41,156 bases of DNA from a virus (IMGVR_UViG_3300010429_001127); one strand, 5' to 3'; shown: positions 21,558-41,156, counted from the first letter of the stretch. Numbers and translations are program-made. Notes: a model not told the origin generated them from the sequence alone.

Positions 21558-21564
21558 GGCCGGC

Positions 21565-23851: not shown

Positions 23852-24117
23852 AACGATCTCCAGCAGTTCCTCTGCACCGGGACCTCAACCCGATCGCGGC
23901 ATTCCCGGAGGCCCGGGCAGGTCCAGCAGAACGGCGGATCGTTCCGGAGCCGGAAGACCCGGACGAACGCGGGCTCGTGGACGTGCTGCAGCTCGTGGTC
24001 GATGATGAAGATCTGGTCTTCAGCAGTCCGGATCTGATGGAGCAGGTGGTCCCTGCGGGCCTGGAGGCAGACACGGAGGAGGTTGCTGTCCTGGATGTCT
24101 GCGGTGCAGCCGGTCAC
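23848..24117 (-). CDS. Hypothetical protein with C-terminal Cys cluster
   Basis: ATGA-coupled; CWTCPGLREC...C. Confidence 0.55.
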   Translation of the reverse strand: MTGCTADIQDSNLLRVCLQARRDHLLHQIRTAEDQIFIIDHELQHVHEPAFVRVFRLRNDPPFCWTCPGLRECRDRVEVPVQRNCWRSL

Positions 24118-24578: not shown

Positions 24579-24579
24579 G

Positions 24580-25314: not shown

Positions 25315-27818
25315 GATTCGGGTTCCTCCTCCTTCTTTTTCGGCTTCCTGCTCGCGCTGCGTTTCTTCTCTGGCTTCTCCCCGATCAGGTGCTGCGTAGG
25401 GCAGTAATTCTGCTCGGTGAGTTTCTTGCCGGTCTTCGTGCAGATCCCGCCTTCCCAGTCAAGGGAGGGGCAGTTCCGGATCGTGCTGCACCAGGTGATG
25501 TTCGGGATCTTGTCCGCTTTTGAGATCCATGCCTCGCACTTCGTCCGGGCCGTCTCCTCCATCAGGACCTTGGCGCTCTTGTCGCCGCCTTTGAACAGCA
25601 GCTCGCCGAGCCGTGGGCAGGTCTCATGGAAGGTCTTCCTGCCCTTATGGTGCCCGCAGGTGCCGCAGGAGCCCGGAGTCGGACCGCCGCTCTTGACTGG
25701 TTGCTCCTTCGCGGCCTCAAAAATGAATTTGAAAACTCCGGTGTCGAGCTGCGAATCTATCTGCAGAAGGGAGCGGCCGATCTTGACGTACTCCGGGTTA
25801 ATCTCAATACCGACAGAGGAACGGCCCATATCTCGCGCCTTCCGTGTGACCGTACCGGTTCCCCAGAATGGATCCAGCACAACACAGGGAACGGGATCCC
25901 CGGCATTGCATTCACAGGTCGGTTTCCAGCCTTTGAACTCGCGCCGGTATCCTTTCGTCGGTGCCCCGCATATCGCCCCGATCACATCGTCTTGTTCATG
26001 CGGGGTCCATGAACCCTGACCAATGGATCCGCCGCTTGTCTCGATGATGCGCCGGTATGGTGCGCCGCATTTCGGGCAGCAGCCATACTCGCTTGTACCG
26101 GCCGCAATGCATCGGCGTGGGATCTCATCGGGGAATGTTGCGAAATGCGCCTCCGGGCGGGCCTGCGTTGCGATGGTCCATACCGTGCGGGCGTTCCGGG
26201 TGATGCCATCACAAATCGGCTGCCCGTCAGATCCGAGATCTCCGGAATGGTTCGATAGGCTCTTCGACCTCGCAGCAATCTTGTTTTTATACCGTTCGTT
26301 GAACCCGGTATATGTCGGATTCCCTGTCAGGTCTTGTTTTCTGATCGTCTTCTTCTCGGGGCTCGCCCATGTTGCGAGTGAAAAGGACCGGTTCTGCCGG
26401 ATACCATTGCCCGGTGCGGTGACTTTCGGGAGCGGCCCTTTGTAGTTCCCGTGCGGATGGGCGTTGCCGGATACTGGTTCCCGGGCACCATCGGCGTCAT
26501 AGAAATATTTCCCGTTCTTTGTGAGCAGGAAAATATACTCATGGCTCTTGGTCGGGCGATCCGTGACGCTCTCCGGCATCGGGTTCGGCTTCGACCAGAC
26601 AATGTCAGAGCGGAGATACCAGCCATCATCCTGCAGGGCGAGGGCGACGCGCCACGGCACGCCCATCATATCTTTTGATTTCAGGCCGTCGGGGACCTCC
26701 GTCCCCGGATCATGGAATCCCTGCCGTTTTGTCTGGTCGCCGATACCGTTCTTTCCGGTCGGTCCTTTCCCGCTGCCCGCGTAACAGTCTCCGATATTGA
26801 GGAACACCGTGCCGTCATCCCGGAGGACCCGCCGGACCTCCCGGAATACCTTAACGATCTTATCAAGATATTCCGTAAGTGAATCCTCGAGGCCGATCTG
26901 CCCATCAATCCCATAATTCCGGAGCTGGTAATAGGGAATGCTCGTGATCACGCACTGGATGAGGCCGGACGGGATCCGCTGGAGGCCGTCCATAACATCG
27001 CCCTGAATGATCCGGTGGACCATCGCTGCAGGGGGCTGCGATGCTTCGGTGTCGGGATTCTCCGGGGGGGCAGCCTTGATTTGTCGGGATTTTGTCGGGA
27101 TTGCTGGGGCCGGGGATGGTGGACATGCCGGTTCCTGCGCTGGTGGCGAGGCCGGGGCCGGCAGCAGCTTCGCGGGGATCCGCCAGAGCGGGCAGACCGG
27201 CAGGTCCGCGAGCGGGACCTTGATCACCGGGCAGGTGGTTTCGCCGATCCCGCAGCGCTTGACACCGTCCGGGCAGAACTCGCCTCCGCATTTGAGCGGG
27301 GTGATCGTGTATCGATCGCGGTCCTGGACGATCTCCTGCAGGGCCTTGAGCTGGTGCTCCTGGTCCGGGTTCCCGAGAACATGGCAGAAGCAATATCCGC
27401 CGAGGCTCTGGCCGAGGATGTCGCCGGTGAAAGCGCACTTCCAGATGGTGCCCGTCTTCTTCTCGTATTGCCCCGCGCCGGTCTTACTGAACTTCTCCCC
27501 GATCTCGGAGAATTTATACGGACAGGTTGCCGGGCAGTTCTTCGGCCCGGGGACCTTGCTTTCATATTTCTGATCCTCGTCTCCGCGCAGATGCCAACCT
27601 CCGGTGTGGAGGAGGACCCACGGATCGATCGCGGGGTCCTGGATGCAGCAGGGCAGCGTGCCGGGCATGGTGTTGAATACCTGACATCGCTCCTGTGCGT
27701 CCTCTGGGTATGCCGTGTCCTCGTTCTTCCGGAGCTGGGGGCATTTCCGTTCCCGGCAGTTCTTAATTCCCCACTTCTTTTCCTTCGGGAGTTCTTTTCC
27801 CATGCAGGAGGAGCTCAT
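25311..27818 (-). CDS. N4C/N6A DNA methyltransferase (beta class) with Cys-rich N- and C-terminal extensions
   Basis: IIQGDV, TSIPY (motif IV variant), WSKPNPMPES, HFATFP, VLDPFWGTGT, GIEINPEY. Confidence 0.9.
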   Translation of the reverse strand: MSSSCMGKELPKEKKWGIKNCRERKCPQLRKNEDTAYPEDAQERCQVFNTMPGTLPCCIQDPAIDPWVLLHTGGWHLRGDEDQKYESKVPGPKNCPATCPYKFSEIGEKFSKTGAGQYEKKTGTIWKCAFTGDILGQSLGGYCFCHVLGNPDQEHQLKALQEIVQDRDRYTITPLKCGGEFCPDGVKRCGIGETTCPVIKVPLADLPVCPLWRIPAKLLPAPASPPAQEPACPPSPAPAIPTKSRQIKAAPPENPDTEASQPPAAMVHRIIQGDVMDGLQRIPSGLIQCVITSIPYYQLRNYGIDGQIGLEDSLTEYLDKIVKVFREVRRVLRDDGTVFLNIGDCYAGSGKGPTGKNGIGDQTKRQGFHDPGTEVPDGLKSKDMMGVPWRVALALQDDGWYLRSDIVWSKPNPMPESVTDRPTKSHEYIFLLTKNGKYFYDADGAREPVSGNAHPHGNYKGPLPKVTAPGNGIRQNRSFSLATWASPEKKTIRKQDLTGNPTYTGFNERYKNKIAARSKSLSNHSGDLGSDGQPICDGITRNARTVWTIATQARPEAHFATFPDEIPRRCIAAGTSEYGCCPKCGAPYRRIIETSGGSIGQGSWTPHEQDDVIGAICGAPTKGYRREFKGWKPTCECNAGDPVPCVVLDPFWGTGTVTRKARDMGRSSVGIEINPEYVKIGRSLLQIDSQLDTGVFKFIFEAAKEQPVKSGGPTPGSCGTCGHHKGRKTFHETCPRLGELLFKGGDKSAKVLMEETARTKCEAWISKADKIPNITWCSTIRNCPSLDWEGGICTKTGKKLTEQNYCPTQHLIGEKPEKKRSASRKPKKKEEEPES

Positions 27819-28144
27819 GGCGTACCCCCCGCCGCGCTCAGCTGGCCGCTTTCCTGCGGGCTGCCGGTACTGAGTGGCCGGGCAAACGACCGGTTGCCAT
27901 TCCGGTTATGCCGCGCACCGCTGTAAGCTGTGAATCCCAGCCGGAGCAGCGCACAGGAGATCTCCATCTTGGCGATCCGGTCGGTCCTCCTTGCCAGCTC
28001 CGGGAAGTCTGCCGGGTGGTCCCTGACCCATATCAGCAGCGGCATGGTGCTGACGTATGTCTTCTCTGCCGGGTAAGCGGCTGCCTGGAGCGCGAGGACT
28101 TCTTTGTCGACCGTTGATTTGTGCGGGGATGCAGTGGTTAGCAT
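27815..28144 (-). CDS. Hypothetical protein
   Basis: Likely start ATG 28144; coupled to the MTase start. Confidence 0.55.
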   Translation of the reverse strand: MLTTASPHKSTVDKEVLALQAAAYPAEKTYVSTMPLLIWVRDHPADFPELARRTDRIAKMEISCALLRLGFTAYSGARHNRNGNRSFARPLSTGSPQESGQLSAAGGTP

Positions 28145-28656
28145 GCGACCATCGCCTCCCGGCCCACGAACCCGGTACACTCCCGGGCCCGGCGCCACGA
28201 GTAATTACAGGTGCCGCCGTTCCTGCAGCCCTGGTATTTCTCCCTGCGCTGACAGGGGTGGTGGACCGCGGCCTTCCGCCCGTGGTGGACCCGCTTGTGG
28301 TGCGACTTCTTGCCGCCGCGGCAATGCCAGCACTTCTCGGCGCCGGGCTTCATATAGTGCCGCTTGCACACCGGGCAGATCACGAACCCGCGCCGGTACA
28401 TCCAGTGGCATTTCCCACAGGCCGGCGTGCCGTTCTCGTCGAGGTTGTAGTATGCCTCCTTGCTGTGATAGGACCGCGGATCGTCGTGATGCGCGAGGGT
28501 TGCCGGGCGCCCGCAGTACTCGCAGATGGGGTTCTTCAGCAGGAACTCGGCTTCGATTGCCTGATACTCAGGATCTGCCCACCATGCTGCGGTCTGCTGC
28601 TTGTGGAGTTCGGCAGCGATGGCGCCGGGGTTGGTGGTCGTGATGGGGCTGATCAT
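28138..28656 (-). CDS. HNH-endonuclease-like zinc-finger protein
   Basis: CEYC...AHH...N....CGKCH plus further CxxC pairs; start ATG 28656. Confidence 0.7.
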   Translation of the reverse strand: MISPITTTNPGAIAAELHKQQTAAWWADPEYQAIEAEFLLKNPICEYCGRPATLAHHDDPRSYHSKEAYYNLDENGTPACGKCHWMYRRGFVICPVCKRHYMKPGAEKCWHCRGGKKSHHKRVHHGRKAAVHHPCQRREKYQGCRNGGTCNYSWRRARECTGFVGREAMVAC

Positions 28657-28754
28657 GGGTGCGTCAGCCTCCACGCTACCGCGCCGGTGATGATCAGCAG
28701 GATGACGAGCCCGACCAGGAGCCGGACACGCCAGATGAGGTCGGAGCGCATCAT
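28653..28754 (-). CDS. 33-aa single-pass membrane protein
   Basis: MMRSDLIWRVRLLVGLVILLIITGAVAWRLTHP; coupled at both ends. Confidence 0.5.
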   Translation of the reverse strand: MMRSDLIWRVRLLVGLVILLIITGAVAWRLTHP

Positions 28755-28963
28755 AGGACCGGCCGCCCCCGTGCACTCTTCAGGTACGGGAGATCGCGCC
28801 GCCCCTTCGGGACCCGCATATCCGGGCGGCAATCGGTGACCCGGGCGCACGGGATCCCGGCAACCTCGCAATAGTCTTCCTTCAGCTCCGGGTACTTCGG
28901 CACCCTCACGAGGTGGTGATGGCCGCACCGCAGGCAGTACCGGCGGATTTCACTGGTATGCAT
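28751..28963 (-). CDS. Small Cys-rich protein
   Basis: CLRCGHHH...C...C...C. Confidence 0.5.
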   Translation of the reverse strand: MHTSEIRRYCLRCGHHHLVRVPKYPELKEDYCEVAGIPCARVTDCRPDMRVPKGRRDLPYLKSARGRPVL

Positions 28964-28966
28964 TGA

Positions 28967-29464
28967 TTAACCCTCCATGACGATGGCCGCCACAATCGGG
29001 TACAGATCCTTCCATTGGAGGTCCTGCCGGGTGGCGATGCTTACTTCATCTGCGAGATCCTCGCGCTTCCGGGACCAGCACATATGATCGCGGTCCCGCA
29101 GGTACTCCCGCTTGAATTCGAGCTTCCGGACTGCTTCCCGGGTGGCCTGTTCGATGGCTGCCCGTTTCTCTGCCTCTTGTCGTTCCCGATCCGCCTTCCG
29201 GGTTTCCTCATCCTGGATGATCTTCCGCTGTGACATTTTTTCACGGCGGATCTTATCGGCAAGCTCCCGGGCCTTCTGCCGGATTGAGGTTTCAGGAAGA
29301 TCGTCACCTTCGAGAATGAACTCCTCAAGCATCTGGTTGACGAAGGCGGAGAGCATCCGCTTATTGCCAGTCATTGCGGTGAGCTTACGGGTGGCGAGAA
29401 AAACGACCTCTTGATCGAGGTAGAGGTTTGTCTGCTTGAAATTGATATCCTTCAGGGGGAGCAC
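28967..29464 (-). CDS. Putative DNA-binding protein (RHH-like N-terminus + coiled coil)
   Basis: TNLYLDQEV...LSAFVNQMLEEFI. Confidence 0.55.
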   Translation of the reverse strand: MLPLKDINFKQTNLYLDQEVVFLATRKLTAMTGNKRMLSAFVNQMLEEFILEGDDLPETSIRQKARELADKIRREKMSQRKIIQDEETRKADRERQEAEKRAAIEQATREAVRKLEFKREYLRDRDHMCWSRKREDLADEVSIATRQDLQWKDLYPIVAAIVMEG

Positions 29465-29493
29465 CCCCGCTGGATTTTCTTTCCTGAAATGGA

Positions 29494-29510
29494 ATTATAT
29501 AATATAATAT
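29494..29510. promoter_or_regulatory. AT-only palindrome ATTATATA-A-TATATAAT
   Basis: Perfect 8-bp inverted repeat in a strongly AT-rich patch. Confidence 0.45.
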
Positions 29511-29546
29511 AATCTTTTTTCTTAGTAGTAGTAGGAGGTGCAGGGA

Positions 29547-30686
29547 TCATTCATCCTCCCCCGCGCTCGTCAGGAACCAGTTCGCCGCTTTCTTCAGGAA
29601 GTCCGCCCGGGTCCGGATACCCTCGTATCGCGCCTGGATGAGTTCATCCACCATCCTGACCTCTTTCTCGGTGAAGAACCCGGACCGTTCGATCAGGTCA
29701 TCGGCGCACTTGTTCAGCTCCTCGCAGGTCATCGGGGTTTTGACAATCCGGATGCCGCCGGGCCTGATGATCTTCGCGCCATCGAGCCGGGCGCTCGCTA
29801 CGGCTGCCTGACCTTCCGGTGAGGCAAGATACTGCCGGCGAAGTACCGGACACTCTTTCTGGTTCACGATGAGGTTGCCGCTGCCGGCGCACTTGTTCCC
29901 CAGGACCTGCTGTTTGACCAGAAGATCGGTGGGTCCTGGGCACGGTTTGCCGGCCTTGCAGGGAGGTGTAAAGTCCGGGGCGGGCGGCAGGGTGGTTGCG
30001 GTCGTGAATGCCGGCTGGTTCTTTGCAGCTTCTGCGATCTCCTGTCTCCGGGCCTGCTCCTGATCGATCTGCGTTACGGTTTTGGGAGGATCGACCGGCT
30101 CGCCATCATGGAGCGGCGCGAAGAAGTGCTCGGGTTTCGCTGGCTCCGGATCCTTTTTTCCGATCTTGTCGGTTTTCATGCGCGAAACGGTGCCATGCTT
30201 AGTTGCATAGGTGCGCGTTTTCGTCGGTGGCTCTGAATCCTCACTACCGGATTTCCGGTAGTGAGAACGGTACTTTGACACGGTTTCCGGGTGGACGTTG
30301 CAGACTTCCGCGATCTTGTTGTCCGACCATTTCGACCATTCCTTGTCATTCAGCAGGCGCTCGACAGCCCGGCGTTTGTCCTCATTCGTCCTGCGGAGAC
30401 CATGGGTAGCATTGACGCCGGAAGCAAACAGGATCGCGTCCCGCATCTTACCCTCGTGGATGTTACAGAGCACCTTCTTGATGCCGGAGGATTGTGCAGC
30501 CAAGAGCCGGTGATACCCATCCACTAAGACATACTCACCGTCAACCCGGAAGACTTCCAGCGGCGGGAATTTACCGCCCGCCTTCATGCTCTCCGAGTAC
30601 TCATCAACGACCGCCATGTGCATGTTTACGCGGGGCTGCGTTGCGGCATCTTGTTTGATCTGCCCGATTGGGATAAGCTCTGTCAT
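29547..30686 (-). CDS. ParB/Srx-like N-terminal domain protein with HTH and Cys4 module
   Basis: PPLEVF...LVDGYHRLLA, NATHGLR, WSDNKIAEVCNVHPETV. Confidence 0.85.
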   Translation of the reverse strand: MTELIPIGQIKQDAATQPRVNMHMAVVDEYSESMKAGGKFPPLEVFRVDGEYVLVDGYHRLLAAQSSGIKKVLCNIHEGKMRDAILFASGVNATHGLRRTNEDKRRAVERLLNDKEWSKWSDNKIAEVCNVHPETVSKYRSHYRKSGSEDSEPPTKTRTYATKHGTVSRMKTDKIGKKDPEPAKPEHFFAPLHDGEPVDPPKTVTQIDQEQARRQEIAEAAKNQPAFTTATTLPPAPDFTPPCKAGKPCPGPTDLLVKQQVLGNKCAGSGNLIVNQKECPVLRRQYLASPEGQAAVASARLDGAKIIRPGGIRIVKTPMTCEELNKCADDLIERSGFFTEKEVRMVDELIQARYEGIRTRADFLKKAANWFLTSAGEDE

Positions 30687-30850
30687 GGACAGCCCGCCTC
30701 CCGCAGCCTGATGGCCCGGTGTTCATACAGCACCGGTACCGGCAGATCATAGATCGTCTGTACGTTATGCCGGGCCAGCTCCGCCCGGAGATCCTGCGAA
30801 CGTTCCCGGGCCGGGACCATCCGCTCAAGCATGCGTTTTCGCTTGCCCAT
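30683..30850 (-). CDS. Small hypothetical protein (55 aa)
   Basis: Not in ORF track; MGKRKRMLERM...; stop overlaps the ParB start. Confidence 0.5.
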   Translation of the reverse strand: MGKRKRMLERMVPARERSQDLRAELARHNVQTIYDLPVPVLYEHRAIRLREAGCP

Positions 30851-30856
30851 GCCGGA

Positions 30857-31039
30857 TCACACTCTCTTGCTATCTGCTGTCAGATCCCCGTGTTCGACCC
30901 AGACCAGTCTTTTGCACTTCACACATTGCCAGAGCGATCCTTTGCTGATTATCTCGCCACCCGCTGAGATTATCGAATGCTCGTGGGTTCGGCAGATCTT
31001 CTCAAATTCGTGTCCGCAACATTCTTTACATATTGCCAT
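30857..31039 (-). CDS. Zinc-ribbon protein
   Basis: CKECC...WQCVKC. Confidence 0.55.
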   Translation of the reverse strand: MAICKECCGHEFEKICRTHEHSIISAGGEIISKGSLWQCVKCKRLVWVEHGDLTADSKRV

Positions 31040-31045
31040 GCCGGA

Positions 31046-31849
31046 TCACCCCTCGACCGGTGCAGACAACGCCGGGTATCCCGTCTCCGGCTGTCGCTTC
31101 AGGCCGGATGCAAAGAGGATCGATTCCCGCCACCGGATCCTGATCTCCCGGTGCCCGCTGGTCGCTTCGAACCAGTACTCCTCACCGAACTCATCGCCCT
31201 TCGGCTGCAGCCGCCAGACCGGGCCTTCCGGGTACTGGTAGCCGTGATTATACAGGTACGAGTTGACCTCCCGGGCATTCAGGCCGCAGCGCTCTCCCAG
31301 CTGTGTAGGATTCAGCCAGGTGCCGCCCTCTCCATGGATGAGACACGGTGCCTTGAGCGCCTCGATGTATTCCGGCATGCCGCACTTTTTCAATGCAACC
31401 GCCTGGAACGCTTTCAGGTCGCCGCCAGTCAATCCGGCGAGGTTCCGGGCACGGTTCATCTCCGCCTCGATGGTCAGGACTGCCGGGCCAAGGGAAGGTG
31501 CCGCCGTCTCCCGGTCAGCGTCCATTTTCTCGAGGGCGATCTTCCGGAGATCCAGCAGCTGGTCCAGGGGCAGCTTGGATTTTGACGGATGGATGATCAG
31601 GAACAGGTAATCAACACCGGTCCGGTTCAGGCAGAGGAATTGCTGCTGCCCGCCGGGGGTCGGAAGGGATACGTAGGTTTTGTAAGGGCTCATTTTTTCC
31701 TTGAACCCCTCTATCGCGCTGTCGATCCCGCTCCGGCTGTACCCGATCATCTTGGCGATATCGAGTACCGGGATGACCGGCCCGATCGGGGAGTCCGCAA
31801 TCCGGAGCCAGCTCTCCATGCCTTCGGGTTTGAGGATCCGGACGGTCAC
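31046..31849 (-). CDS. Antirepressor-like protein (BRO-N-like + KilA-C/ANT-like)
   Basis: GTGA-coupled start 31849; VLDIAKMIGY, TPGGQQQFLCLN, NPTQLGER...AREVNSYL. Confidence 0.75.
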   Translation of the reverse strand: MTVRILKPEGMESWLRIADSPIGPVIPVLDIAKMIGYSRSGIDSAIEGFKEKMSPYKTYVSLPTPGGQQQFLCLNRTGVDYLFLIIHPSKSKLPLDQLLDLRKIALEKMDADRETAAPSLGPAVLTIEAEMNRARNLAGLTGGDLKAFQAVALKKCGMPEYIEALKAPCLIHGEGGTWLNPTQLGERCGLNAREVNSYLYNHGYQYPEGPVWRLQPKGDEFGEEYWFEATSGHREIRIRWRESILFASGLKRQPETGYPALSAPVEG

Positions 31850-32910
31850 GCGCCCACCTTCGCGAGGTTGCTGCGGTTGATCCATTCCATACCATTGTCG
31901 AATGAGACAAGCACTTCCGGCTGTCCCTGCGGGATGCGCTTGATCCTACCGGTGCCTTGGAAAATGACCGGGTGGCCGGTATGCCGGACCGTATCTCCAA
32001 TCCTGAAGGAGCCGTCGTCCGATGGCGTCGGAGACGGTGCAGGTTGCGCGATCGCTTCCAGGGCTTCCCGTGCCTCCTCTGCAAGCGTTTTATCATCCGG
32101 GGTGCCCATCGATTCGAACGTGGTCCCGCCGTTCTCGGTGTCGACCGAATATTCCTGCCCGACTGCCGGACCGGGTGGAACTACGTTTTCCGCCGTTTTC
32201 TGCACCTTGGCGTCTTTTTTCTTCTGCTTCGCTTCCTTCTTCGCCTGCCGGTCGATGGCATACCACTTCATGCCGACGGCGTTATCGTTCCGCTTGCTGT
32301 CAGGGAATGCCGCCCGGTACGCCTTGACGGCGGTCTCCCGGTCCTTGATTTCTGCGACGGCCTTGATCTCGTCCGGGCTCCACTTGCCATTCTCCATATG
32401 GGCACCGCCTCTCTTCTCCCGTGGCTCTGGCTTCTTCGCCTTGGCTTTGATGATCTGCCGTGCGGTGGGCTTCTTCCCCGGAAGTTCCTCCCGGGCCTTC
32501 GCGGCCTGCCGGTCCGCCTCCTTTTCAGTTTCGGTCAGGAGGTCGCCCGATATACCCCCGGGCGGTGTATCCTTCGGAACCTCGTGGTACTGGTCCCACC
32601 ACCGGGTCACCGTTGACTTGCCCCGGCTACTGTTCGGGAACGCTGCCTGATACCGCGTCCATGCGTCCTCCTTCGACTGTGCCACCCTGACGACGTCCTT
32701 CTCCGCGTCGCTCCAGGGCACCATCACGAAATGCTTTGGCGTCGTCGATGTCCGCTGCGGTGCTGCAACCCTCGCGAGAAACAGGTCGATCTCCTTCTCA
32801 ACATGACGGGCGTCGGTCTGTGTGATCCCCTCGACAGAGAAGCCGAAGGAGACAGTGGCCTTGCCGTCCTTGATTTGCGTATCCCGGTTTGCGTTGTAGG
32901 TTTCGATCAT
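31846..32910 (-). CDS. Protein with two Myb/SANT-like repeats and a C-terminal SH3-like domain
   Basis: WSDAEK...AAFPNSSR...RWW and WSPDEIK...AAFPDSKR...KWY; FRIGDTVRH. Confidence 0.65.
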   Translation of the reverse strand: MIETYNANRDTQIKDGKATVSFGFSVEGITQTDARHVEKEIDLFLARVAAPQRTSTTPKHFVMVPWSDAEKDVVRVAQSKEDAWTRYQAAFPNSSRGKSTVTRWWDQYHEVPKDTPPGGISGDLLTETEKEADRQAAKAREELPGKKPTARQIIKAKAKKPEPREKRGGAHMENGKWSPDEIKAVAEIKDRETAVKAYRAAFPDSKRNDNAVGMKWYAIDRQAKKEAKQKKKDAKVQKTAENVVPPGPAVGQEYSVDTENGGTTFESMGTPDDKTLAEEAREALEAIAQPAPSPTPSDDGSFRIGDTVRHTGHPVIFQGTGRIKRIPQGQPEVLVSFDNGMEWINRSNLAKVGA

Positions 32911-32928
32911 GCGAAAAATTCCACCCTT

Positions 32929-33081
32929 TCAGTCATCCAATTCGACAAAATAGGCAGCCGCGGTCATCCCGCGGTTGAGATCGTTCGCGAGTTCTTCCGC
33001 ATCCTTCAGAGCGACCGGGGTGCTATGCAGGTATCGGATTACCTGCCCGTTCACGGTCGCTCCGAGGTAAACAGGGGGCAT
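32929..33081 (-). CDS. Small hypothetical protein (50 aa)
   Basis: Not in ORF track; coupled to the PCNA-2 stop; MPPVYLGATVNG... Confidence 0.45.
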   Translation of the reverse strand: MPPVYLGATVNGQVIRYLHSTPVALKDAEELANDLNRGMTAAAYFVELDD

Positions 33082-33869
33082 CACAACCACCCCGCAGTAT
33101 CAGTCAGCGTATCATCGGATTCTATTCGGGGGGCGAGCGCATATGCAACAGTCAGCCCCGGCGCCATCGCTGCCGTTATCCGGATCGGATGGTCGGTGCC
33201 CATCTCGACCGATAACTGGTGCCCGGCAAGCACCCGAGAAAGGTCTTTCAGGTAGTCGAGGCTGAACAGGGATGCCGCGATTGCGGAACCACCACAGATC
33301 GCGATCGGGATCTTGCACTGGGTCCGGGTGTCGCCCATCGCCGCCATGGTGACGACCCCGGTCTTGAGGACCTCAATCCGGCACTTATCAGAAAAGACGC
33401 CGCAGATCCGGACGGCCCGGGCGAAGTCATCACCGCTGCAAGAGAATACCGCGGGGAGATCGGCTTTGAACCCGACCGTATCTTTCCTTATGGTCGTTTC
33501 GTCAAGCGTCTCGATACGGTACCGGTCCTTCCCGATTCCGTCGATATCAAGATAGGGGCGGACCGGATCCCTCCCGGCGCTCCATGAGAGGGTCACGGTG
33601 CCTTCCGGTGCCGGCTCTCCTTCCGTGATGCACCGGAGCGCCGAATCGAGCTGCGCGATGTCCAGGCCGAGGACTGCGCTGCCCGGGTAACCCTGGACCG
33701 CCATCCTGATATCGATCAGGCCAACATTCGCAGAATCAACGGTGAAGACCCGGGCCTCCCCATCTTTGATGTGGACGCGGCACTCACAGACCAGCGCTGC
33801 GAGGGCCCGGGTAAATTTTAGCAGCATCGGGTAGCCGATGGTGAATGAGCCGGGGTTGAAGGCGGGCAT
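33081..33869 (-). CDS. pcn: PCNA sliding clamp, paralogue 2 (divergent)
   Basis: FTVDSANVGLI, SLFSLDYLKDL, DHPIRI, YALAPRIE. Confidence 0.9.
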   Translation of the reverse strand: MPAFNPGSFTIGYPMLLKFTRALAALVCECRVHIKDGEARVFTVDSANVGLIDIRMAVQGYPGSAVLGLDIAQLDSALRCITEGEPAPEGTVTLSWSAGRDPVRPYLDIDGIGKDRYRIETLDETTIRKDTVGFKADLPAVFSCSGDDFARAVRICGVFSDKCRIEVLKTGVVTMAAMGDTRTQCKIPIAICGGSAIAASLFSLDYLKDLSRVLAGHQLSVEMGTDHPIRITAAMAPGLTVAYALAPRIESDDTLTDTAGWL

Positions 33870-33870
33870 C

Positions 33871-34272
33871 TCACAGCACCTCCTTCAGTGCCATGCGGAT
33901 GGCCGCGTTCTGGCGCTCCAGCCCTTTGCAAGTCTCCCTCAAGAATAGGTTACCGATCTCCAGTTTGCGGTGCTCCTTTGCCGTGTTCTGGATGGCCTCG
34001 GAGAGAAATTCACGATATTTTCCCTCGACCTCTTTTTCCTTTTCCAGTCGGGCTTTGAGTTCGAGGACCTCGCCGCCGAGCTGCTTGCATATCTCCCGCA
34101 GCTTGTCGCTCTCTCCTGCCTGCTGCTCAAGGGTTGCGATCTTCTCGGTCAGGGAGGCGATCTCAGCTCCGAACTGATTCCGTTCTTCCAGCACCCGGTC
34201 GAGCTCTCCCTGCGAGACTTCCAGATTCTTTCGGAGCTCGACCTCGAATCGGTTAGGCTTATGCGGGGGCAT
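33871..34272 (-). CDS. Coiled-coil protein
   Basis: Start at 34272 or GTG 34275; heptad pattern throughout. Confidence 0.65.
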   Translation of the reverse strand: MPPHKPNRFEVELRKNLEVSQGELDRVLEERNQFGAEIASLTEKIATLEQQAGESDKLREICKQLGGEVLELKARLEKEKEVEGKYREFLSEAIQNTAKEHRKLEIGNLFLRETCKGLERQNAAIRMALKEVL

Positions 34273-35069
34273 CACGCACCCCCGAAAGTCCGCTGGATAT
34301 ACTTCTCGACGATCTCCCTGGTGACTGCCGACTGCGTGCCGAGTGCCCGGAGGCTGTCGATCAGGCAGGCGCGGGCGGTCAGGAAGTCGGTCGCCGTGGC
34401 CTCGATCCTGAGGTTCTCGTAGTTGTTGAGGTTGACCGTGGCGGAGAGGGTGATCTCCTTGACGGTACCGGTTGCCGCAGGGGACGTGCAAGGCTCTTGC
34501 GGTGCCGGCTGTTCTTCTTTCTTGAGTTCCGCCGCAGTCTTCAGGACCGGCGCCGGATCCTGTTTCTGCGTCTCGATCCTCTCAATGCCGGCTGCTGCCA
34601 ATCCGTCTCCCCGGCGGTCATCCAGCAGGCCGAGCCGGACCATATCACCGGGCTTAATCGGGCAGTCCGGGGCATTCAGGTACTTCAGGAGCAGGTCAGA
34701 ACCGCAGCTATAGGTATTCTTGGAGCCATCAACCTTCAGGACGACATTCTTACCGGGGGTCCCGACGAACTCCCCTGTCACATACTTCGCGTTCTCCGGC
34801 TCCTTTGCAGGGGCCGGGGGCTGGCCGGGAACCTGGCTCTTTGCCCTTGCCTCATCTGCCTCGGCCTGCGCGATCTCTGCCTTTGAAGGGGCGACCATGC
34901 TCCTGGCAGTACCCTTCTCGACTGTTACCTTCGCGAATGATCCGGGAGGGAAGTTCTTCTGTGCCGGTACCCGGTCCTCCGGGGGAACGAAGATGATCTT
35001 CCCGCCGACAATGACGTTTGAGGGGTCGTACTCGCTGACCCGGCCTACGATCGTTGCCATGGCGGTCAA
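34272..35069 (-). CDS. Hypothetical protein, possibly tandem OB-fold
   Basis: Two beta-rich segments separated by Pro/Ala linkers. Confidence 0.55.
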   Translation of the reverse strand: MTAMATIVGRVSEYDPSNVIVGGKIIFVPPEDRVPAQKNFPPGSFAKVTVEKGTARSMVAPSKAEIAQAEADEARAKSQVPGQPPAPAKEPENAKYVTGEFVGTPGKNVVLKVDGSKNTYSCGSDLLLKYLNAPDCPIKPGDMVRLGLLDDRRGDGLAAAGIERIETQKQDPAPVLKTAAELKKEEQPAPQEPCTSPAATGTVKEITLSATVNLNNYENLRIEATATDFLTARACLIDSLRALGTQSAVTREIVEKYIQRTFGGA

Positions 35070-35566
35070 GCCTCCTCTTTCGCGAGGAGGACGTAATCGG
35101 TGCGGACCGGGTCAGCTGGCGCATGAATGATCCGGTCGAGGTCCTTCTTTCCCTTGATGATCGCCTTCACGTCGGACTGCGCGATGAACGTCCCGGCCTT
35201 CTCCAGCTGTGCCTTCATCTTCTCTTCGGCTGCTGCTTTCAGGTTCTCGCGGATCCGGGTGAGCTGGTCCGGGTAATGCTGCTCGAGGATGGCGATATCA
35301 ACCGTCTTGTTGCCATAGACCGGTGTCGGGACGATCCGGTAAAAGTCATCCTCCAGGATGCACGTCTCAACGGCATGTTGCAGCAGTCCCTCGCGGTCCT
35401 CCGTGAGCTTCTGCTGCTTCTCCCGTAAGATCGTGATCTGGTTCTCCAGGTCCTCTATCTGACCGTCGATGAAATGAATCTGCGTCGGGATGGTTCGGTC
35501 CTCCTTAACGACCAGCGTCGGGAGGGGGTCGGTCTTGAGGCTCGCGGCCTCGTCTCGTGCTTCCAT
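35066..35566 (-). CDS. Hypothetical coiled-coil protein
   Basis: 166 aa, N-terminal coiled coil; Gam/Gp157-like position only. Confidence 0.6.
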   Translation of the reverse strand: MEARDEAASLKTDPLPTLVVKEDRTIPTQIHFIDGQIEDLENQITILREKQQKLTEDREGLLQHAVETCILEDDFYRIVPTPVYGNKTVDIAILEQHYPDQLTRIRENLKAAAEEKMKAQLEKAGTFIAQSDVKAIIKGKKDLDRIIHAPADPVRTDYVLLAKEEA

Positions 35567-35569
35567 CGC

Positions 35570-36055
35570 CTACACCCCCTCGGCGAGGACCTGAATCTGG
35601 AGGAGCATGTCGTCGATGGTGCCCCGGCCATCGCCCCTCCGGATCCGGACCCGGGCCTCTTCCGCGATCGCGGCGATCTTCTGCATGGGCGGCTCAACGT
35701 ATGGCACCTCGACGATGTCCATGCCATGGAACCTGAAGGTCGCGAGCGGCTCGTCCTGACGGTCCACCGTGGCGGCCGCCTGTGTGATCTTCTGCAGGTC
35801 CTCCGCGTCGACCACCTTGCCGGCCTTATAGACAACCTTCGGGTCCTCCACCCATATCGGGCCGAACCCGCAGTCACGGCACCAGAATGCCCACCCTTCG
35901 CAGGGATCGTGGCTGCCGTACACGAGCTGCCCGCCACATTCCGGGCATACCTTGATTTCATCGGACGATTCAGAATAGCTGGCAGTTCCCTTTCCCTCGT
36001 TTGAAGGCGCTGGAATCGGGCTGCCATTTTCAGATTTTGCTGTTACCTGATTCAT
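35570..36055 (-). CDS. Zinc-ribbon protein
   Basis: Likely start ATG 36055; CPECGG...WCRDCGF. Confidence 0.6.
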   Translation of the reverse strand: MNQVTAKSENGSPIPAPSNEGKGTASYSESSDEIKVCPECGGQLVYGSHDPCEGWAFWCRDCGFGPIWVEDPKVVYKAGKVVDAEDLQKITQAAATVDRQDEPLATFRFHGMDIVEVPYVEPPMQKIAAIAEEARVRIRRGDGRGTIDDMLLQIQVLAEGV

Positions 36056-36197
36056 GTGCCACACTTCCGATCTTTTCGACGATCTTAATCCTGCCGCTCT
36101 CCATGACGAGAAGCGCACCGAGCGGGTCCTCCTGCGCGAAGATATCGAAGGCTTCACGGCTGACCTGTCTCGGGTACTGGGCTGCTGCAGAGGTCAT
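36030..36197 (-). CDS. Small hypothetical protein (55 aa)
   Basis: Not in ORF track; MTSAAAQYPRQVSREAFDIF... Confidence 0.5.
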   Translation of the reverse strand: MTSAAAQYPRQVSREAFDIFAQEDPLGALLVMESGRIKIVEKIGSVAHESGNSKI

Positions 36198-36203
36198 GCG
36201 CGA

Positions 36204-36578
36204 TCAGGCCCCCTCGCAGACCTTGGTTTCTGAGCTGACGATAGTCTTTGTACGATCCATCAACCCTTCTCGTGCCGCGAGCGATCGGACGCCCTCATTT
36301 ACGAAGTCATCATCGTCATATCCCTTCTCGCGGAGCGCGGCCTCCTCATCCCACAGGCCCGGTTTAAGCTCGCCGGTTATCAGGTGACAGTTGGGGTACA
36401 ACCCCTCCTGTTTCGCAATGAACTCCACCCCGGCATTAGCAATGGGGACCTTCGAAAGCTTCTTGCCCTCTGAGATCCACTTCGCCAGAATCTTCCCAAG
36501 GAGATCGTCGTGGAATGGGTCCATACGGGCGCCGATGAAATCGGTTGTCCGCTCATCCAGTGGTGTCTTGTTTCCCAT
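36204..36578 (-). CDS. First gene of the early operon, hypothetical
   Basis: 124 aa directly after the AT-rich divergent promoter region. Confidence 0.65.
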   Translation of the reverse strand: MGNKTPLDERTTDFIGARMDPFHDDLLGKILAKWISEGKKLSKVPIANAGVEFIAKQEGLYPNCHLITGELKPGLWDEEAALREKGYDDDDFVNEGVRSLAAREGLMDRTKTIVSSETKVCEGA

Positions 36579-36709
36579 TGTTTACCACAATTAAACAATG
36601 TGCACAACTTGTTTAAAAAACTTTCTATCAACGTTCACTATTCGTAAACAAATATAAATTCGGTAATTTTGATATACTCAAGCACTCATTTGTTAACCGG
36701 TGTGGCACA
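36576..36709. promoter_or_regulatory. Divergent promoter / operator region (lysis-lysogeny switch candidate)
   Basis: AT-rich; perfect IR CATTGTTTA-7-TAAACAATG; TATA-like TTTTTTAAA (minus, 36612-36620) and TATAAA (plus, 36653-36658). Confidence 0.7.
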
Positions 36710-36973
36710 ATGGGGACTGAACCGCTTATCCCTCATGGTTTTAAAATACCGAAATCGAAAAGTGATAAGATCGTTTCGTATGCAAAAGAGCGAGACGTGA
36801 AGATCTCGGTTATCCTGAACGAAGCTGTGACTGAATATATCAACCGCCGGGAGCATCCGGAGCGCCAGATTGAGATGATCCAGCATGTCCTCCTCACTCA
36901 TCCGGAACTTCTTGACGAGCCTCTACGTCGTTACAACGCTTGGAATTTATCAGGGCGGACCTCGAACCAATAA
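36710..36973 (+). CDS. Ribbon-helix-helix repressor candidate
   Basis: HGFKIPKSKSDKIVSYAKERDVKISVILNEAVTEYI fits the RHH pattern; divergent from the early operon. Confidence 0.75.
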   Translation: MGTEPLIPHGFKIPKSKSDKIVSYAKERDVKISVILNEAVTEYINRREHPERQIEMIQHVLLTHPELLDEPLRRYNAWNLSGRTSNQ

Positions 36974-37154
36974 GATTAATGATTTTTTCATTTTCAAGTG
37001 CCTTTTTTATCAGCCCATAAAAATTGTCCACAAAGTGGTCACCCGCTCCTGCAGTATCCATACAAACGCATGGCAGATATTAAGGACAGAGCATAGCGGG
37101 GGATGAAAGTGATAACCTAAAGGTTGTATGAATGTTAACCAGATCGAATAAACT

Positions 37155-38372
37155 CTATTTAGGCTTTCCTACCTTCTCCCGGATCACGTCGTCCCGGACA
37201 GTCTTCAGCGTCTCGATATCCCGCAGGGCCTCAAGGGAGAGCGGCCTGCTGCAGCGCGAACAGAACCCGGACCCTGCAGCATTCTGGAACCCGCACCGCG
37301 GGCACTTGACCGGCTTCAGTGGGTCGGCCGGCTGATCTTCCGGGTTCAGGTCCACCCCCTCGATCTGCAGGATCTTGTTGTCGATATCCCGGCCGGACAG
37401 GTGCACGTAGACTGCTGCCATGCCGGACCGCTCGCTCCACCCGGCATACTTCCGGAGCTCCGATTCAGTGAGTTGCTTGCCTCGCTGGGTCAGTCTGCCG
37501 TGCCGGAAGGCATGGGGGTTCGTCTTCTTCTGCACCCCCGCAAGGTCCCGCAGGCGCTTGAAGAGGTTCTGGACGGTACGTTCATCTAGGCGTGAGTAGG
37601 TTGTGGTCCCCCGTTTCCGCGAGGTGACGAAAAGGGGAACGTCGGCGTCATGCTTCAGCGGATGGAACTTATCGATCCAAGTCTGGAGATCCGGGGCGGC
37701 GCTCACGATCCGGATCTGCCGCTGGCCGGTCTTGCCGGTGACGGTCAGGACCGCACCGTACTGGTCAAACTTGACATGCCCGACATTACAGCCCAGGAGC
37801 TCGTTCAGCCGGGCGGCGCTGTCCCAGTACGTGGCAACGATCGCACGGTCCCGCTGGGTCTCGCAGACATCCAGGAGCTTTGCCACGTTCCCGGCCTGCA
37901 GGACCTTCTCGGGCGGGATCTCGTGCCGGGGCCTCGCTGGCTTGAAGGCGACGATCTTCTTCTCCGGCAGGAGCCAGCGATAGAAAAGTTCCAGCTCCTG
38001 GACATCATGGAACGCGGTGACCGGGGATTTTGTCTTCTTCCGGTGCAGGAAATAGTCCTCGATATCGTGCGGCTGCACGGCCTTCGCGTCCTGGAATTTA
38101 TACCAGATCAGGAACGTATAGATTTTCCAGAGCTTGTTCTGGATTGTCAGTGCGCTCAGGTTCCGGAGCTCCAGCGATCGCAGGTAGCCCGATAAATATT
38201 CACGATTTTTATAATCAAGGTTTTTGAATTTGTGCCACACTTCCATGATCTTTTGTTGGTGCAGGCCGTATATTACGCCATTGTCCTGTACAAGGTTGAG
38301 GGCCTTCGACGAATGACTGGCACAATATCGTGGCGCAAGTGCAGATGGGCGAGGGTTGCCAAGACAGGTCAA
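37155..38372 (-). CDS. int: Tyrosine integrase with C-terminal zinc ribbon (start uncertain: TTG 38372 or ATG 38247)
   Basis: WDSAARLNE (R), HAFRH (HxxR), VYVHL (Y), CPRC...CSRC. Confidence 0.95.
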   Translation of the reverse strand: MTCLGNPRPSALAPRYCASHSSKALNLVQDNGVIYGLHQQKIMEVWHKFKNLDYKNREYLSGYLRSLELRNLSALTIQNKLWKIYTFLIWYKFQDAKAVQPHDIEDYFLHRKKTKSPVTAFHDVQELELFYRWLLPEKKIVAFKPARPRHEIPPEKVLQAGNVAKLLDVCETQRDRAIVATYWDSAARLNELLGCNVGHVKFDQYGAVLTVTGKTGQRQIRIVSAAPDLQTWIDKFHPLKHDADVPLFVTSRKRGTTTYSRLDERTVQNLFKRLRDLAGVQKKTNPHAFRHGRLTQRGKQLTESELRKYAGWSERSGMAAVYVHLSGRDIDNKILQIEGVDLNPEDQPADPLKPVKCPRCGFQNAAGSGFCSRCSRPLSLEALRDIETLKTVRDDVIREKVGKPK

Positions 38373-38433
38373 AGGCGTCAGGTTGAGGGCCTGATCTCGT
38401 AGGAGTTCGAGGGTTCAAATCCCTTCCCTCGCA
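38349..38433 (+). tRNA. tRNA-Leu(GAG), 85 nt; probable integration target / att region
   Basis: Acceptor GCGAGGG/CCCTCGC+A, anticodon stem TCAGG/CCTGA with loop TTGAGGG, long variable arm, T-loop TTCAAAT. Confidence 0.9.
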
Positions 38434-38512
38434 TACTCATTTTTGATAATCTATATCTCCATTTCTGGGTAAGGTTTATATTCCGAGAGGTTTTAGGTTA
38501 ACCTAACAAATC

Positions 38513-38653
38513 ATGACCCGCTTCCATATCCGGGCCCGCGTCCGGAAAGCCCGGAAGGAGATTGACGAGAAAGCGCAGGCCGTCCTCTCCCATTACCCCG
38601 TGGCGGATCCCGGGGACCGGCGCCGGGCCGGTATGTGCATGTGCGTGCGGTAG
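38513..38653 (+). CDS. Small basic protein (46 aa), possible recombination-directionality or regulatory factor
   Basis: Not in ORF track; TTTATATT at 38475-38482 upstream; MTRFHIRARVRKARKEIDEKAQAVL... Confidence 0.4.
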   Translation: MTRFHIRARVRKARKEIDEKAQAVLSHYPVADPGDRRRAGMCMCVR

Positions 38654-38667
38654 GGCTGCCGGCTCTC

Positions 38668-38994
38668 TTATTTTAACTCCATTCTCTCATCGATGGAGAT
38701 CAGCGAGTCGTTGATCTTAAAGACCACCACGACGAACTCACAGAGCAGCCTCCAAAGAAGGTTGCCAAGGAATATTACCCCCAGACCCGCGATATATGCC
38801 TCCTGAGCAGTTTTGTATGACCAGGGAGAGGTCCGTCCCCAAACACAAATAGAGATGCCGGCAAGTAGCAGGACGACGACCCCGAGGATGTAGACGATGC
38901 AGATCGTATATCTCGTTATGAATTCATCGAAGGTGAAGAAGTCCTCAATGGATTTCATTATCGGTTTCATGCGTTCGTAATCACCGCCTGCCAT
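38668..38994 (-). CDS. DUF4282-like two-TM membrane protein
   Basis: FFTFDEFIT...VYILG...LWRLLCEFVVVVFKINDSL pattern. Confidence 0.75.
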   Translation of the reverse strand: MAGGDYERMKPIMKSIEDFFTFDEFITRYTICIVYILGVVVLLLAGISICVWGRTSPWSYKTAQEAYIAGLGVIFLGNLLWRLLCEFVVVVFKINDSLISIDERMELK

Positions 38995-39491
38995 CCATAA
39001 CAGCCACTGGAGACGATCTTATACTGCCCCGGGGTGATGATGTTAAATGTCACTTTATTGGAATTCTTCCGGGTGGTTGCCAGGCCGCTCAATAACGTGA
39101 AGTCGATTGACTTCCCGGTGAGGGTAACCCGATAAGGGGCGGCGGAGCACCCGGTCACGGACGGCGTGAGCGAGTTCCCGTATGCCGCATCTATTATGAT
39201 CTTCCCTGGAGCAACGACCGTAAAGGATCCCGATGACGGGCCGGTTCCTTTTAGTGTCACGGTCTCCGCCAGCGGCTTGCTCGGCGCTGCGGTTGGTGCG
39301 GTTGCCGTCGGTGCCGGGGCTGTCGTCCGGGCGGTCGTGAGGACCGACGTCGTAGCCGGCACGGTGGTCCCGGGCGTCGCTGCTGTGAAGGAGGTTTGAG
39401 GAGGAGTTGCTGCAGGGAGCTGCGAGGCGGCAATGCAGCCGGCAGCGGCTACGATCAGGATTACGGCGCAAAAAAGAAGTCCCTTGTGCAT
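38967..39491 (-). CDS. Predicted lipoprotein, allele B
   Basis: Likely start ATG 39491: MHKGLLFCAVILIVAAAGCIAASQ; lipobox AGC; Thr-rich linker; C-terminal beta domain. Confidence 0.85.
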   Translation of the reverse strand: MHKGLLFCAVILIVAAAGCIAASQLPAATPPQTSFTAATPGTTVPATTSVLTTARTTAPAPTATAPTAAPSKPLAETVTLKGTGPSSGSFTVVAPGKIIIDAAYGNSLTPSVTGCSAAPYRVTLTGKSIDFTLLSGLATTRKNSNKVTFNIITPGQYKIVSSGCYGWQAVITNA

Positions 39492-39529
39492 AATCTCTTT
39501 TAAACTATCGCGGGAAATAAAGATATTCC

Positions 39530-40603
39530 TTAGCCGGTCGGTCCGTCGAACACCAATGGCCACGTCGCCCCATCTGTAGTATTGAAGACATCATAGAGAA
39601 GCGAGCCGCCGGTGTTGATGCCGGAGATCACCCAGAGCTTGCTGTCGTAAACGAATGATGAGTGCCCCCATCTCGCGGAGAACGCGGCGGAAGCGGTCGC
39701 CTGCGTCCATACCCCGCTGTCCAGATAGTAGACGTCATTATACGTCGCGCCTGCAGCGCCCCGGCCCCCGATCACCCAAAGTTTGCTGTCGTAGACTGTC
39801 GCGGTGTGCATCATCCTTGCGGAGAACAGGGCGGATGCTGTGATCTCCGTCCACGTCTGCCCGGTATCAGAGTACCACACGTCGTTATAGAAATTCGTGG
39901 CGTTATCCGTTCCGCCGATGATCCATATCCCCCCGGCATGGGAGGTCATGGTATGCCGCTGCCGGGTCGCATACGCCGCGTTCGTGGTCTCGGTATCCCA
40001 CGTTATGCCGTCGGCTGAACTGTAGACCCTCTTATCGACGGAAATATACATCTTCCCGTTGTGGACACAGCCGGCGCAGCCCCAGCCGGAGAACGGGGCG
40101 GAACTGTTGACGAGTTGCCACGTGGTCCCGTTCGCTGACTTGTAGACTGTTGAGGTCCCACCCCCCGCGAGGACCCAGATGTAACCGCCAAATGAAAGGA
40201 CGACGTGCCCGAACCGTTCGGAAAATGCGGCGTTCCGCATCTTCATGGTCCATTCCGTAGCGGTCAGGGTGTTCCAGATATCGTTCGATCCGCTGAAATC
40301 ATGCCCGCCGATCCGCCAGATTTTGTCGTCATGGACCATGAAGGAGCGGTAGACCCCGCCCCACGGGGAGAAGTAGGATATGGCATCCGTAGGAATGGCG
40401 ATCTTTTTGCCTCCCGCTGCCGGGAAGATCGCAACTTTATCCCCCACGGAGATCTGCGAGAGCTTGACGGCGACCCGCCTGCCGCCGGCTGTGGGGACGA
40501 TTGCGACCCTGTCCCCGGCAGCCACCGGGGAGAGCGGGATGCTGACCCGCTTGCCGCCTGCCGCCCGGAAGGTCATCACCTTATCGCCCGGCGAGATTGT
40601 CAT
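39530..40603 (-). CDS. Kelch beta-propeller protein, allele B
   Basis: About 80% identical to 386-1456 by manual comparison. Confidence 0.85.
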   Translation of the reverse strand: MTISPGDKVMTFRAAGGKRVSIPLSPVAAGDRVAIVPTAGGRRVAVKLSQISVGDKVAIFPAAGGKKIAIPTDAISYFSPWGGVYRSFMVHDDKIWRIGGHDFSGSNDIWNTLTATEWTMKMRNAAFSERFGHVVLSFGGYIWVLAGGGTSTVYKSANGTTWQLVNSSAPFSGWGCAGCVHNGKMYISVDKRVYSSADGITWDTETTNAAYATRQRHTMTSHAGGIWIIGGTDNATNFYNDVWYSDTGQTWTEITASALFSARMMHTATVYDSKLWVIGGRGAAGATYNDVYYLDSGVWTQATASAAFSARWGHSSFVYDSKLWVISGINTGGSLLYDVFNTTDGATWPLVFDGPTG

Positions 40604-41156
40604 GAGGCATCCCGGGAGAGGCTCGTGAGGCCCTGCTCGAGAGTCGCAGTCACCTCGTCGTCGGTCACGTCCGTGACAGTCCCGATCTCGACCTCCGGCT
40701 CGCCGTTCTTTATATCCCGGATCACCGCCCGCATCCGGGAGATATGCTCGGTGAATGTCCGTTTGAGCTGGAGATACGCCCGGAACTGTGAGTCCGGGAT
40801 CACGGTCACCTGCGTGCGGTTGACGGTGCCCGCTCGGTCGTAGACGTACCGGATATCGACGATCCGGTAATCCCCGGATGTGATCTGCGTGAAGCCCGAG
40901 AACGCGAGCAGTTGCAGCTTCCGGAGGTCGGACCGGGCCCGCAGGGTTACGTCGTATTTCAGGATCGGGGTGCAGTAGTAGTCGTAGAGGTCATCCGCCC
41001 GGTCGTCCGCGTCATCCTGTGAGGAGATATCCTCATTGATCTCCTTGTAGGTCCGGGGGGTCTTCCCATTAGTGATCTCGCTCGTCTCCTTGACCGACCT
41101 GTACCATTCAGATTTGGCAAGCGCCTTGCACTTGACAATGATCCGGTTGAAGTTCT
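40600..41156 (-). CDS. Baseplate hub / Tal-like protein, C-terminal part, allele B (truncated by the window end)
   Basis: Near-identical to 1453-2012 with substitutions and one 3-bp indel. Confidence 0.9.
   Translation of the reverse strand, partial: NFNRIIVKCKALAKSEWYRSVKETSEITNGKTPRTYKEINEDISSQDDADDRADDLYDYYCTPILKYDVTLRARSDLRKLQLLAFSGFTQITSGDYRIVDIRYVYDRAGTVNRTQVTVIPDSQFRAYLQLKRTFTEHISRMRAVIRDIKNGEPEVEIGTVTDVTDDEVTATLEQGLTSLSRDAS

Follow-up and report, generated by a model that had tools for sequence, protein, structure and literature searches.

De Bruijn-graph assemblers are known to over-run circular genomes, or to run on into a co-occurring strain, leaving a contig whose end carries an exact overlap of k-mer length (127 or 55 nt with SPAdes, for which 127 is the largest k allowed, or the k-max of MEGAHIT). 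In tailed phages, the swapping of tail-tip modules by recombination is ordinary and of a known kind, and phages that are otherwise nearly identical exchange tail-fibre or receptor-binding protein (RBP) genes through homologous recombination in the conserved sequence on either side. In T5 (pb5/Llp) and in phi80 and N15 (Cor), a receptor-binding gene lies beside a lipoprotein gene, and the lipoprotein blocks the receptor. Here we analyze IMGVR_UViG_3300010429_001127, a contig of 41,156 nucleotides from a temperate tailed virus (the whole of it hereafter called the window), whose two ends hold diverged versions, alleles A and B, of a tail-tip cassette consisting of the 3' end of a tail hub gene, a Kelch beta-propeller gene and a lipoprotein gene. 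The window is very probably a path through a de Bruijn graph and not one molecule, its repeated ends being an assembler over-run.

Repeat geometry and the unit genome

A direct-repeat scan followed by local alignment matched 110-2012 with 39252-41156, with 1,578 of 1,933 columns identical (81.6%) and an offset of 39,142-39,147 bp between the copies. The same scan found no further repeat of the cassette, such as a template repeat, elsewhere in the window, and the local alignment found no DNA-level counterpart of positions 1-109 at 39143-39251. The final mismatch between the copies is a G at 1885 and an A at 41029. From there, 1886-2012 and 41030-41156 are identical over 127 nt, and the contig terminates at the end of the second copy. 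Both the diverged repeat at about 39.14 kb and the exact 127 bp after a G/A mismatch had been seen in a preliminary description made from the sequence alone, and both were borne out. Since the contig stops exactly 127 bases after the last mismatch, as a k = 127 path predicts, the duplication is best explained as an assembly product. Positions 1886-2012 would be the graph vertex at which the A and B paths merge, and the contig would halt at 41030-41156 since the path there re-enters a vertex already used.

Upon comparison with other assemblies, we found that 41156 runs directly into 2013 at 100% identity in six contigs (L001-L005 and L026) from six public samples (ENA ERZ795055; Logan SRR5007146, SRR5007150 and SRR4244739; JGI 3300009838 and 3300009771). 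Past this join, the six fetched contigs show 0 differences over up to 8 kb, and a 528-aa hub reads straight across it. Because 41156 joins 2013, the unit genome measures 41,156 - 2,012 = 39,144 bp, which leaves no room for a second 1.9-kb cassette. Two of the six measure 39,199 bp and 39,267 bp, i.e., 39,144 + 55 and 39,144 + 123, as is expected when a circular genome is assembled in a de Bruijn graph and its ends overlap by one k-mer; allele B lies mid-contig in the longer of the two. The value of 123 is probably the k of that assembly; a MEGAHIT k-list may end in 123. An indel as the cause of 123 versus 127 was rejected, as the 353-aa and 388-aa proteins concerned differ only in their called start.

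The B genome is widely recorded. The exact Kelch-B protein occurs on 7 recorded contigs from NCBI, JGI, Logan, ENA and GEM, and 15 contigs carrying Kelch-B were read. The B versions of hub, Kelch protein and lipoprotein occur on 6-7 contigs from the five sources, and eight backbone proteins of the window have exact matches on 5-7 contigs from the same five. A seventh run, Logan SRR18360463, carries the lipoprotein-B/DUF4282 side at 100% identity, and shorter contigs from this run and from JGI 3300019247 agreed with the B genome elsewhere at 100% and 99.9%, respectively. Wherever it can be compared (L001-L011, L026 and L027; eight public samples, three archives), the B genome is 100% identical, with the exception of one mismatch in 1,526 nt in JGI 3300019247. 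Such clonality is unusual for an environmental virus. Scans of IMG/VR with the tRNA and with the hub protein gave no match, blastn against phage records gave only a 146-nt match at chance level, and a literature search found no description of this virus.

Allele A, on the other hand, is rare: 1-1885 occurs on the window contig only, apart from a 1,222-bp JGI contig with the remainder of the lipoprotein gene. Kelch-A and hub-A are each recorded on a single contig, the 41,156-bp one from JGI, and together with the rest of lipoprotein A they are JGI-only singletons. That remainder, P0156, was found by a search with the truncated lipoprotein A. It is a JGI-only protein of 94 aa on the 1,222-bp contig and matches at 100% the last 39 residues encoded at the window start, followed by 55 more residues; it ends in ..GCYGW..NA like allele B, and the two C-termini are homologous. 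This shows allele A to be real DNA whose lipoprotein gene is intact (~170 aa). Exact look-ups of Kelch-A, hub-A and P0156 returned no other contig, and no third Kelch allele between 82% and about 40% identity was present among 5.8 billion proteins. The left boundary of allele A lies outside our view, as the window begins inside A, and neither the P0156 protein nor bases 1-59 of the window, used as queries for the left flank, found a match in JGI metagenomes. Since none of the proteins recorded on the 1,222-bp contig reaches 90% identity to the DUF4282 protein, 46-aa protein or integrase of B, the data suggest that A differs from B beyond the lipoprotein too. The coordinates of the features discussed are collected in Table 1.

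Table 1. Annotated features of the window and identity of alleles A and B along the cassette
Feature	Coordinates	Strand	Basis or remark	A/B identity
Lipoprotein allele A, first 115 codons, cut by contig start	1..346	-	translation; P0156 overlap	
44-nt island in lipoprotein gene	110-153			91.5% gapped, 98% ungapped
Lipoprotein signal peptide and linker, indel-rich	154-346			66.5%
Kelch beta-propeller allele A, 356 aa	386..1456	-	Pfam PF24681 80.6 bits, PF01344 53.4 bits	
Kelch gene	386-1452			79.2%
Tail hub (gp27 / Mu gp44 / VgrG-like), 529 aa	1453..3042	-	AlphaFold and Foldseek	
Hub 3' end	1453-1744			86.3%
Hub 3' end	1745-1885			96.5%
First 127-mer copy	1886..2012	.	identical to 41030-41156; preceded by G/A mismatch 1885/41029	100% (shared 127-mer)
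Full turn of 39,144-bp genome with allele B	2013..41156	.	join 41156->2013 at 100% identity in L001-L005, L026	
Tyrosine integrase, 363 aa	37155..38246	-	PHROG 1, E 9e-20; PF00589	
tRNA-Leu(GAG), full-length	38349..38433	+	ARAGORN	
DUF4282 small membrane protein, 100 aa	38668..38970	-	PF14110, 52.5 bits (cut-off 27)	
Lipoprotein allele B, complete, 174 aa	38967..39491	-	family of 28 representatives	
Kelch beta-propeller allele B, 357 aa	39530..40603	-	Pfam PF24681, PF01344	
B-type hub 3' end, last 184 codons	40600..41156	-	continues at 2013 in the real genome	
Second 127-mer copy	41030..41156	.	contig stops there	

Divergence of the two cassettes

We compared the alleles gene by gene. The Kelch proteins are identical at 294 of 357 residues (82%), close to the 80% first estimated. 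Their genes differ with a synonymous divergence (dS) of 0.97 and a ratio of nonsynonymous to synonymous divergence (dN/dS) of 0.11; third codon positions account for 68% of the differences, and the spectrum of substitutions is symmetric, with no adenine bias. Conservation is strongest over the first 80 residues (proportion of nonsynonymous differences, pN, 0.05-0.07); in the more variable propeller, pN reaches 0.17. In the hub, positions 1453-1885 form the A-type 3' end, and from 1886 onward the sequence is identical to the B genome. Codons 1-385 are thus the same, and only 10 of 529 residues differ, all after residue 385. Over this 3' end, synonymous differences go from 0.10 to 0.40 per site and nonsynonymous ones stay at 0.03 (dN/dS 0.09), and within the hub family the C-terminus counts among the conserved parts. 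The lipoproteins diverge faster, with a dN/dS of about 0.5 and C-domains only 38% identical (lipoprotein B versus P0156), in line with the much lower identity noted previously.

Since the Kelch dS is about 1 with a dN/dS of 0.11, the alleles are old and not freshly mutated; their divergence reflects purifying selection and recombination, not hypermutation. Identity rises in steps towards the hub, and the first two of these (79.2 to 86.3 to 96.5%) are significant by Fisher's test (p = 0.006 and 0.0007). Such a pattern is left when homologous recombination, its end points nested within the hub gene, brings old alleles next to identical sequence.

The kinds of gene in the block (hub 3' end, Kelch protein and lipoprotein) justify the name tail-tip cassette used in the preliminary description. 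What was said there of its extent is revised. The module had been called sharply bounded. Its hub-side edge is instead a stepwise gradient (79.2, 86.3, 96.5 and 100%), and A's left edge falls outside the window. The hub C-terminus, counted there as variable, has 10 amino acid differences and is conserved. As for the end given there at the lipoprotein, the difference on the A side seems to extend beyond that gene.

Within the lipoprotein gene, 110-153 and 39252-39295 are identical at 43 of 44 positions in a gene that is otherwise 67% identical. This 44-nt island lies at the linker/domain junction and encodes the motif ..SKPLAETVTL; beyond it, the alleles are unalignable in DNA. It could be a second recombination point or simply a conserved motif; against chance alone, its significance is borderline.

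To account for the window, we propose the following course. The real unit would be a 39,144-bp circular or circularly permuted temperate virus genome with allele B, probably of Methanoregula, and a second, rarer variant with allele A would have been present in the same sample. Homologous recombination with crossovers in the conserved 3' third of the hub gene would have set A and B beside identical hub sequence, placing A on B's backbone. The A path, running through lipoprotein, Kelch gene and hub 3' end, would enter the graph at the first 127-mer it has in common with B, 1886-2012. An assembler working at k = 127, as in metaSPAdes, would start on the A spur, circle once, return through B and stop on meeting that 127-mer again. 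Of this course, the geometry of the 127-mer, the closing of the B genome by itself, the rarity of A and the pattern of divergence are observed. As with known over-runs, the unit genome is recovered alone elsewhere, and the extra piece is a variant allele. Unlike them, the overlap links the contig end to an internal position and not to the start, giving a rho-shaped path with a 1.9-kb minor-allele spur at its front.

The proposed exchange resembles that of tail-fibre and RBP modules in near-identical tailed phages: the backbone is identical where comparable, the distal tail genes, under purifying selection, have diverged by ~20%, and the crossover falls in a conserved gene just upstream. It differs from those cases in that the host is a methanogenic archaeon and the unit holds a Kelch beta-propeller and an exported lipoprotein, not a fibre.

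Weighing the alternatives

Some points count against a graph path as the origin of the window. We infer the co-occurrence of A and B in one sample, their coverage ratio and the shape of the graph. Position 1 of the contig, where the A path breaks off between the window and the 1,222-bp contig, is not at a 127-mer shared with B. The end overlaps of the 39,199-bp and 39,267-bp contigs are deduced from their sizes, among them the 55 nt of NODE_453. Lastly, a head-to-tail provirus pair would show the very gene order seen in the window. If proviruses A and then B stood head to tail at the host tRNA-Leu and the assembler had collapsed their identical backbones, the order would be A cassette, backbone, integrase, tRNA-Leu, DUF4282 and B cassette, as in a tandem pair 3' of the tRNA. 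The tRNA-Leu of a Methanoregula metagenome-assembled genome (MAG) matches and is likely the host attachment site (attB), and the breaks that the graphs of three Logan runs show at the 3' end of the tRNA indicate that a second sequence shares the core. However, host flank is absent from the window and from the 15 integrase-bearing contigs read, B closes on itself at 39,144 + k bases, A is missing from every other data set searched, and the contig end falls exactly at k = 127, and we judge tandem proviruses to be very unlikely. The preliminary description had offered a tandem pair and a circular population as its two readings and had suggested looking for host flanks. The walk from A through the backbone to B in a circular population fits the data, but the tandem pair is less favoured, with no host flank in any contig read.

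A might also come from a separate, related virus that has in common with B only one piece of identical hub sequence (at least 127 nt), making the window a two-virus chimera. The sequence proven to be common to the A molecule and the B backbone is indeed 127 nt only, the 1,222-bp contig lacks any recorded match of at least 90% to B's DUF4282, 46-aa protein and integrase, and diverged lineages do exist, such as L023 (integrase 92%, lipoprotein 41%). Yet the stepwise identity of 79, 86, 96.5 and 100% is that expected of recombination into a shared backbone, hubs A and B are only 10 residues apart, and the 90% clusters of the eight backbone proteins contain no A-type versions, leaving a chimera unlikely. 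We consider it extremely improbable that one genome carries both cassettes, as diverged terminal repeats or a paralogous duplication, or that A arose from B by a diversity-generating retroelement: intact reading frames in both copies speak for it, but complete 39,144-bp B genomes hold a single cassette. Phage direct terminal repeats were rejected, as the copies are 81.6% identical and the first 109 bases have no partner at the other end. A diversity-generating retroelement was rejected with no template repeat in the window, no adenine bias, 68% third-position differences and a dS of about 1; among the ten large open reading frames (ORFs) scanned against PHROGs, there was no reverse transcriptase.

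Genes, tRNA-Leu and probable host

The gene content of the window is that of a tailed virus, and almost every gene lies on the minus strand. The PHROGs scan, which took in those ten ORFs, matched the large terminase, portal, major capsid protein, tape measure (4790-6355) and tyrosine integrase. The hub, encoded downstream of the tape measure, matched no Pfam family. Its AlphaFold model (mean predicted local distance difference test, pLDDT, 75.5) matched Mu gp44, VgrG, contractile injection systems and the tail of Haloferax tailed virus 1 in Foldseek (E 3e-13 to 1e-11). The 529-aa protein thus shares the fold of gp27, Mu gp44 and VgrG hubs and of that archaeal virus tail, although its sequence identity to the solved hubs is 8-13%. 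Between tape measure and hub, 3583-4686 contains a longest ORF of 367 aa that overlaps a 116-aa gene, and public calls use a 287-aa form (3583-4446). In the relative L021, both this 287-/367-aa gene at 3583 and a 179-aa gene are absent between tape measure and hub.

The Kelch proteins (356/357 aa) have six blades. Kelch-A and Kelch-B score 80.6 and 76.9 bits with PF24681 (cut-off 50) and 53.4 and 44 bits with PF01344 (cut-off 20.1), respectively. The Kelch protein is likely a receptor-binding protein, which is also its function in our proposal. Its lipoprotein neighbour, whose gene lies 38 nt downstream, has no Pfam match. Allele A in 1..346 encodes a signal peptide with lipobox ..TTGC, a Thr/Pro-rich linker and the start of the C-domain. 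The lipobox of B reads ..AAGC, and both follow a hydrophobic N-terminus; its Cys is near-invariant in 21 family members. The 28 representatives of the family have in common the lipobox, the linker and two conserved Cys. In the predicted model, the C-domain is an 8-strand beta-sandwich (pLDDT above 90), and a fold search returned only generic beta-sandwich binding domains (E about 4e-4). We propose that the lipoprotein could be a virus-made host-surface protein, possibly for superinfection exclusion.

Among relatives, the region between hub and tRNA varies. In L022, too, a Kelch protein follows the hub homologue (43% identity). In L021, the protein encoded after the hub shares only its first 70 residues with Kelch A/B (57-60% identity), the pattern expected of a conserved anchor with an exchangeable head. 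L023-L025 have the slot order last tail gene, lipoprotein relative, small membrane or SHOCT protein, tRNA-Leu and integrase; in L023, the integrase is 92% and the lipoprotein 41% identical. Because gene content and lipoprotein identity vary there among L021-L025, the hub-to-tRNA region is the variable end of this virus group. In relatives (L023, 738-1322; L024, 1-1155), a zinc-ribbon/bPH/SHOCT protein occupies the DUF4282 slot and a 384-aa protein without a Pfam match the Kelch slot, the lipoprotein being kept in both cases.

With its tRNA-Leu and integrase, this is a temperate tailed virus, and from sequence comparisons its host is probably Methanoregula. Of 185,579 species genomes, only one, a Methanoregula MAG, contains the 3' 35 nt of the tRNA without a mismatch, and none contains the full-length viral tRNA exactly. 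The tRNA-Leu(GAG) of this MAG is identical to the viral one at 83 of 87 positions, and the identity ends at 38435. In addition, cluster mates of the capsid protein and of PCNA are labelled Methanoregula or Methanoregulaceae. The 3' part of the tRNA, about 38395-38435, is the probable attachment (att) core. No host genes were found beside the integrase or the cassette in the 15 integrase-bearing contigs read, which show two neighbourhood patterns. Approached from the right, Logan contigs (k = 31) of SRR5007146, SRR5007150 and SRR18360463 end at 38405/38406, and from the left one ends at 38435; the resulting 30-nt overlap at the tRNA 3' end indicates a branch in those graphs. It could fit a second sequence sharing the att core, either the host tRNA or integrated copies.

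The window tRNA is viral-type on both strands of the stem. We compared the loci at 38349-38433 in the window, 7313-7399 in L013 and 1323-1407 in L023. The four positions that differ between the viral and MAG tRNAs form two compensatory anticodon-stem pairs (virus TCAGG/CCTGA, host CAAGG/CCTTG), and a full-length viral-type tRNA is also found in a related virus whose flanks are only 87% identical. Because of the compensatory stem pairs and this full-length copy, the virus seems to keep a functional tRNA of its own and not a mere att fragment. In a 572-bp contig of the Methanoregula MAG (L012), the sequence is 100% identical to 38819-38388, from DUF4282 to mid-tRNA, and at 38388 gives way to an unrelated AT-rich stretch of 140 nt ending in a palindrome, 25 nt of which recur in an intergenic region of another contig of the MAG. 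This junction may be an alternative left arm of the phage attachment site (attP) or mark integration at a secondary site.

The pairing of the putative RBP with a lipoprotein invites comparison with T5 pb5/Llp and with Cor of phi80 or N15, where a lipoprotein gene also lies beside a receptor-binding gene. The resemblance to T5-like pairs is interesting and is offered as an analogy. Here, the lipoprotein varies together with the Kelch protein and does so faster (38% versus 82% identity). We found no sequence or fold similarity to Llp or Cor, the C-domain being a generic 8-strand beta-sandwich, and in relatives the lipoprotein family follows a non-Kelch protein. A bolder possibility, which we hold only tentatively and think rather doubtful, is that A and B circulate together in one archaeal virus population as two specificity modules, each comprising a Kelch RBP and its own fast-evolving surface lipoprotein that shields the lysogen from viruses of the same specificity. 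Frequency-dependent selection would hold the two in balance and recombination in the hub gene would shuffle them, which would make them the methanogen equivalent of T5 pb5/Llp.

The contig exceeds the true genome by 2,012 bases and is not to be taken for a genome with repeated ends or with two cassettes. The artefact nevertheless exposes a real polymorphism in an undescribed and remarkably clonal virus: on a fixed backbone, a candidate Kelch RBP and the adjacent exported lipoprotein occur in at least two old alleles. To our knowledge, almost nothing is known of host recognition and superinfection exclusion in viruses of methanogens, and the two alleles provide a concrete variant pair for both.

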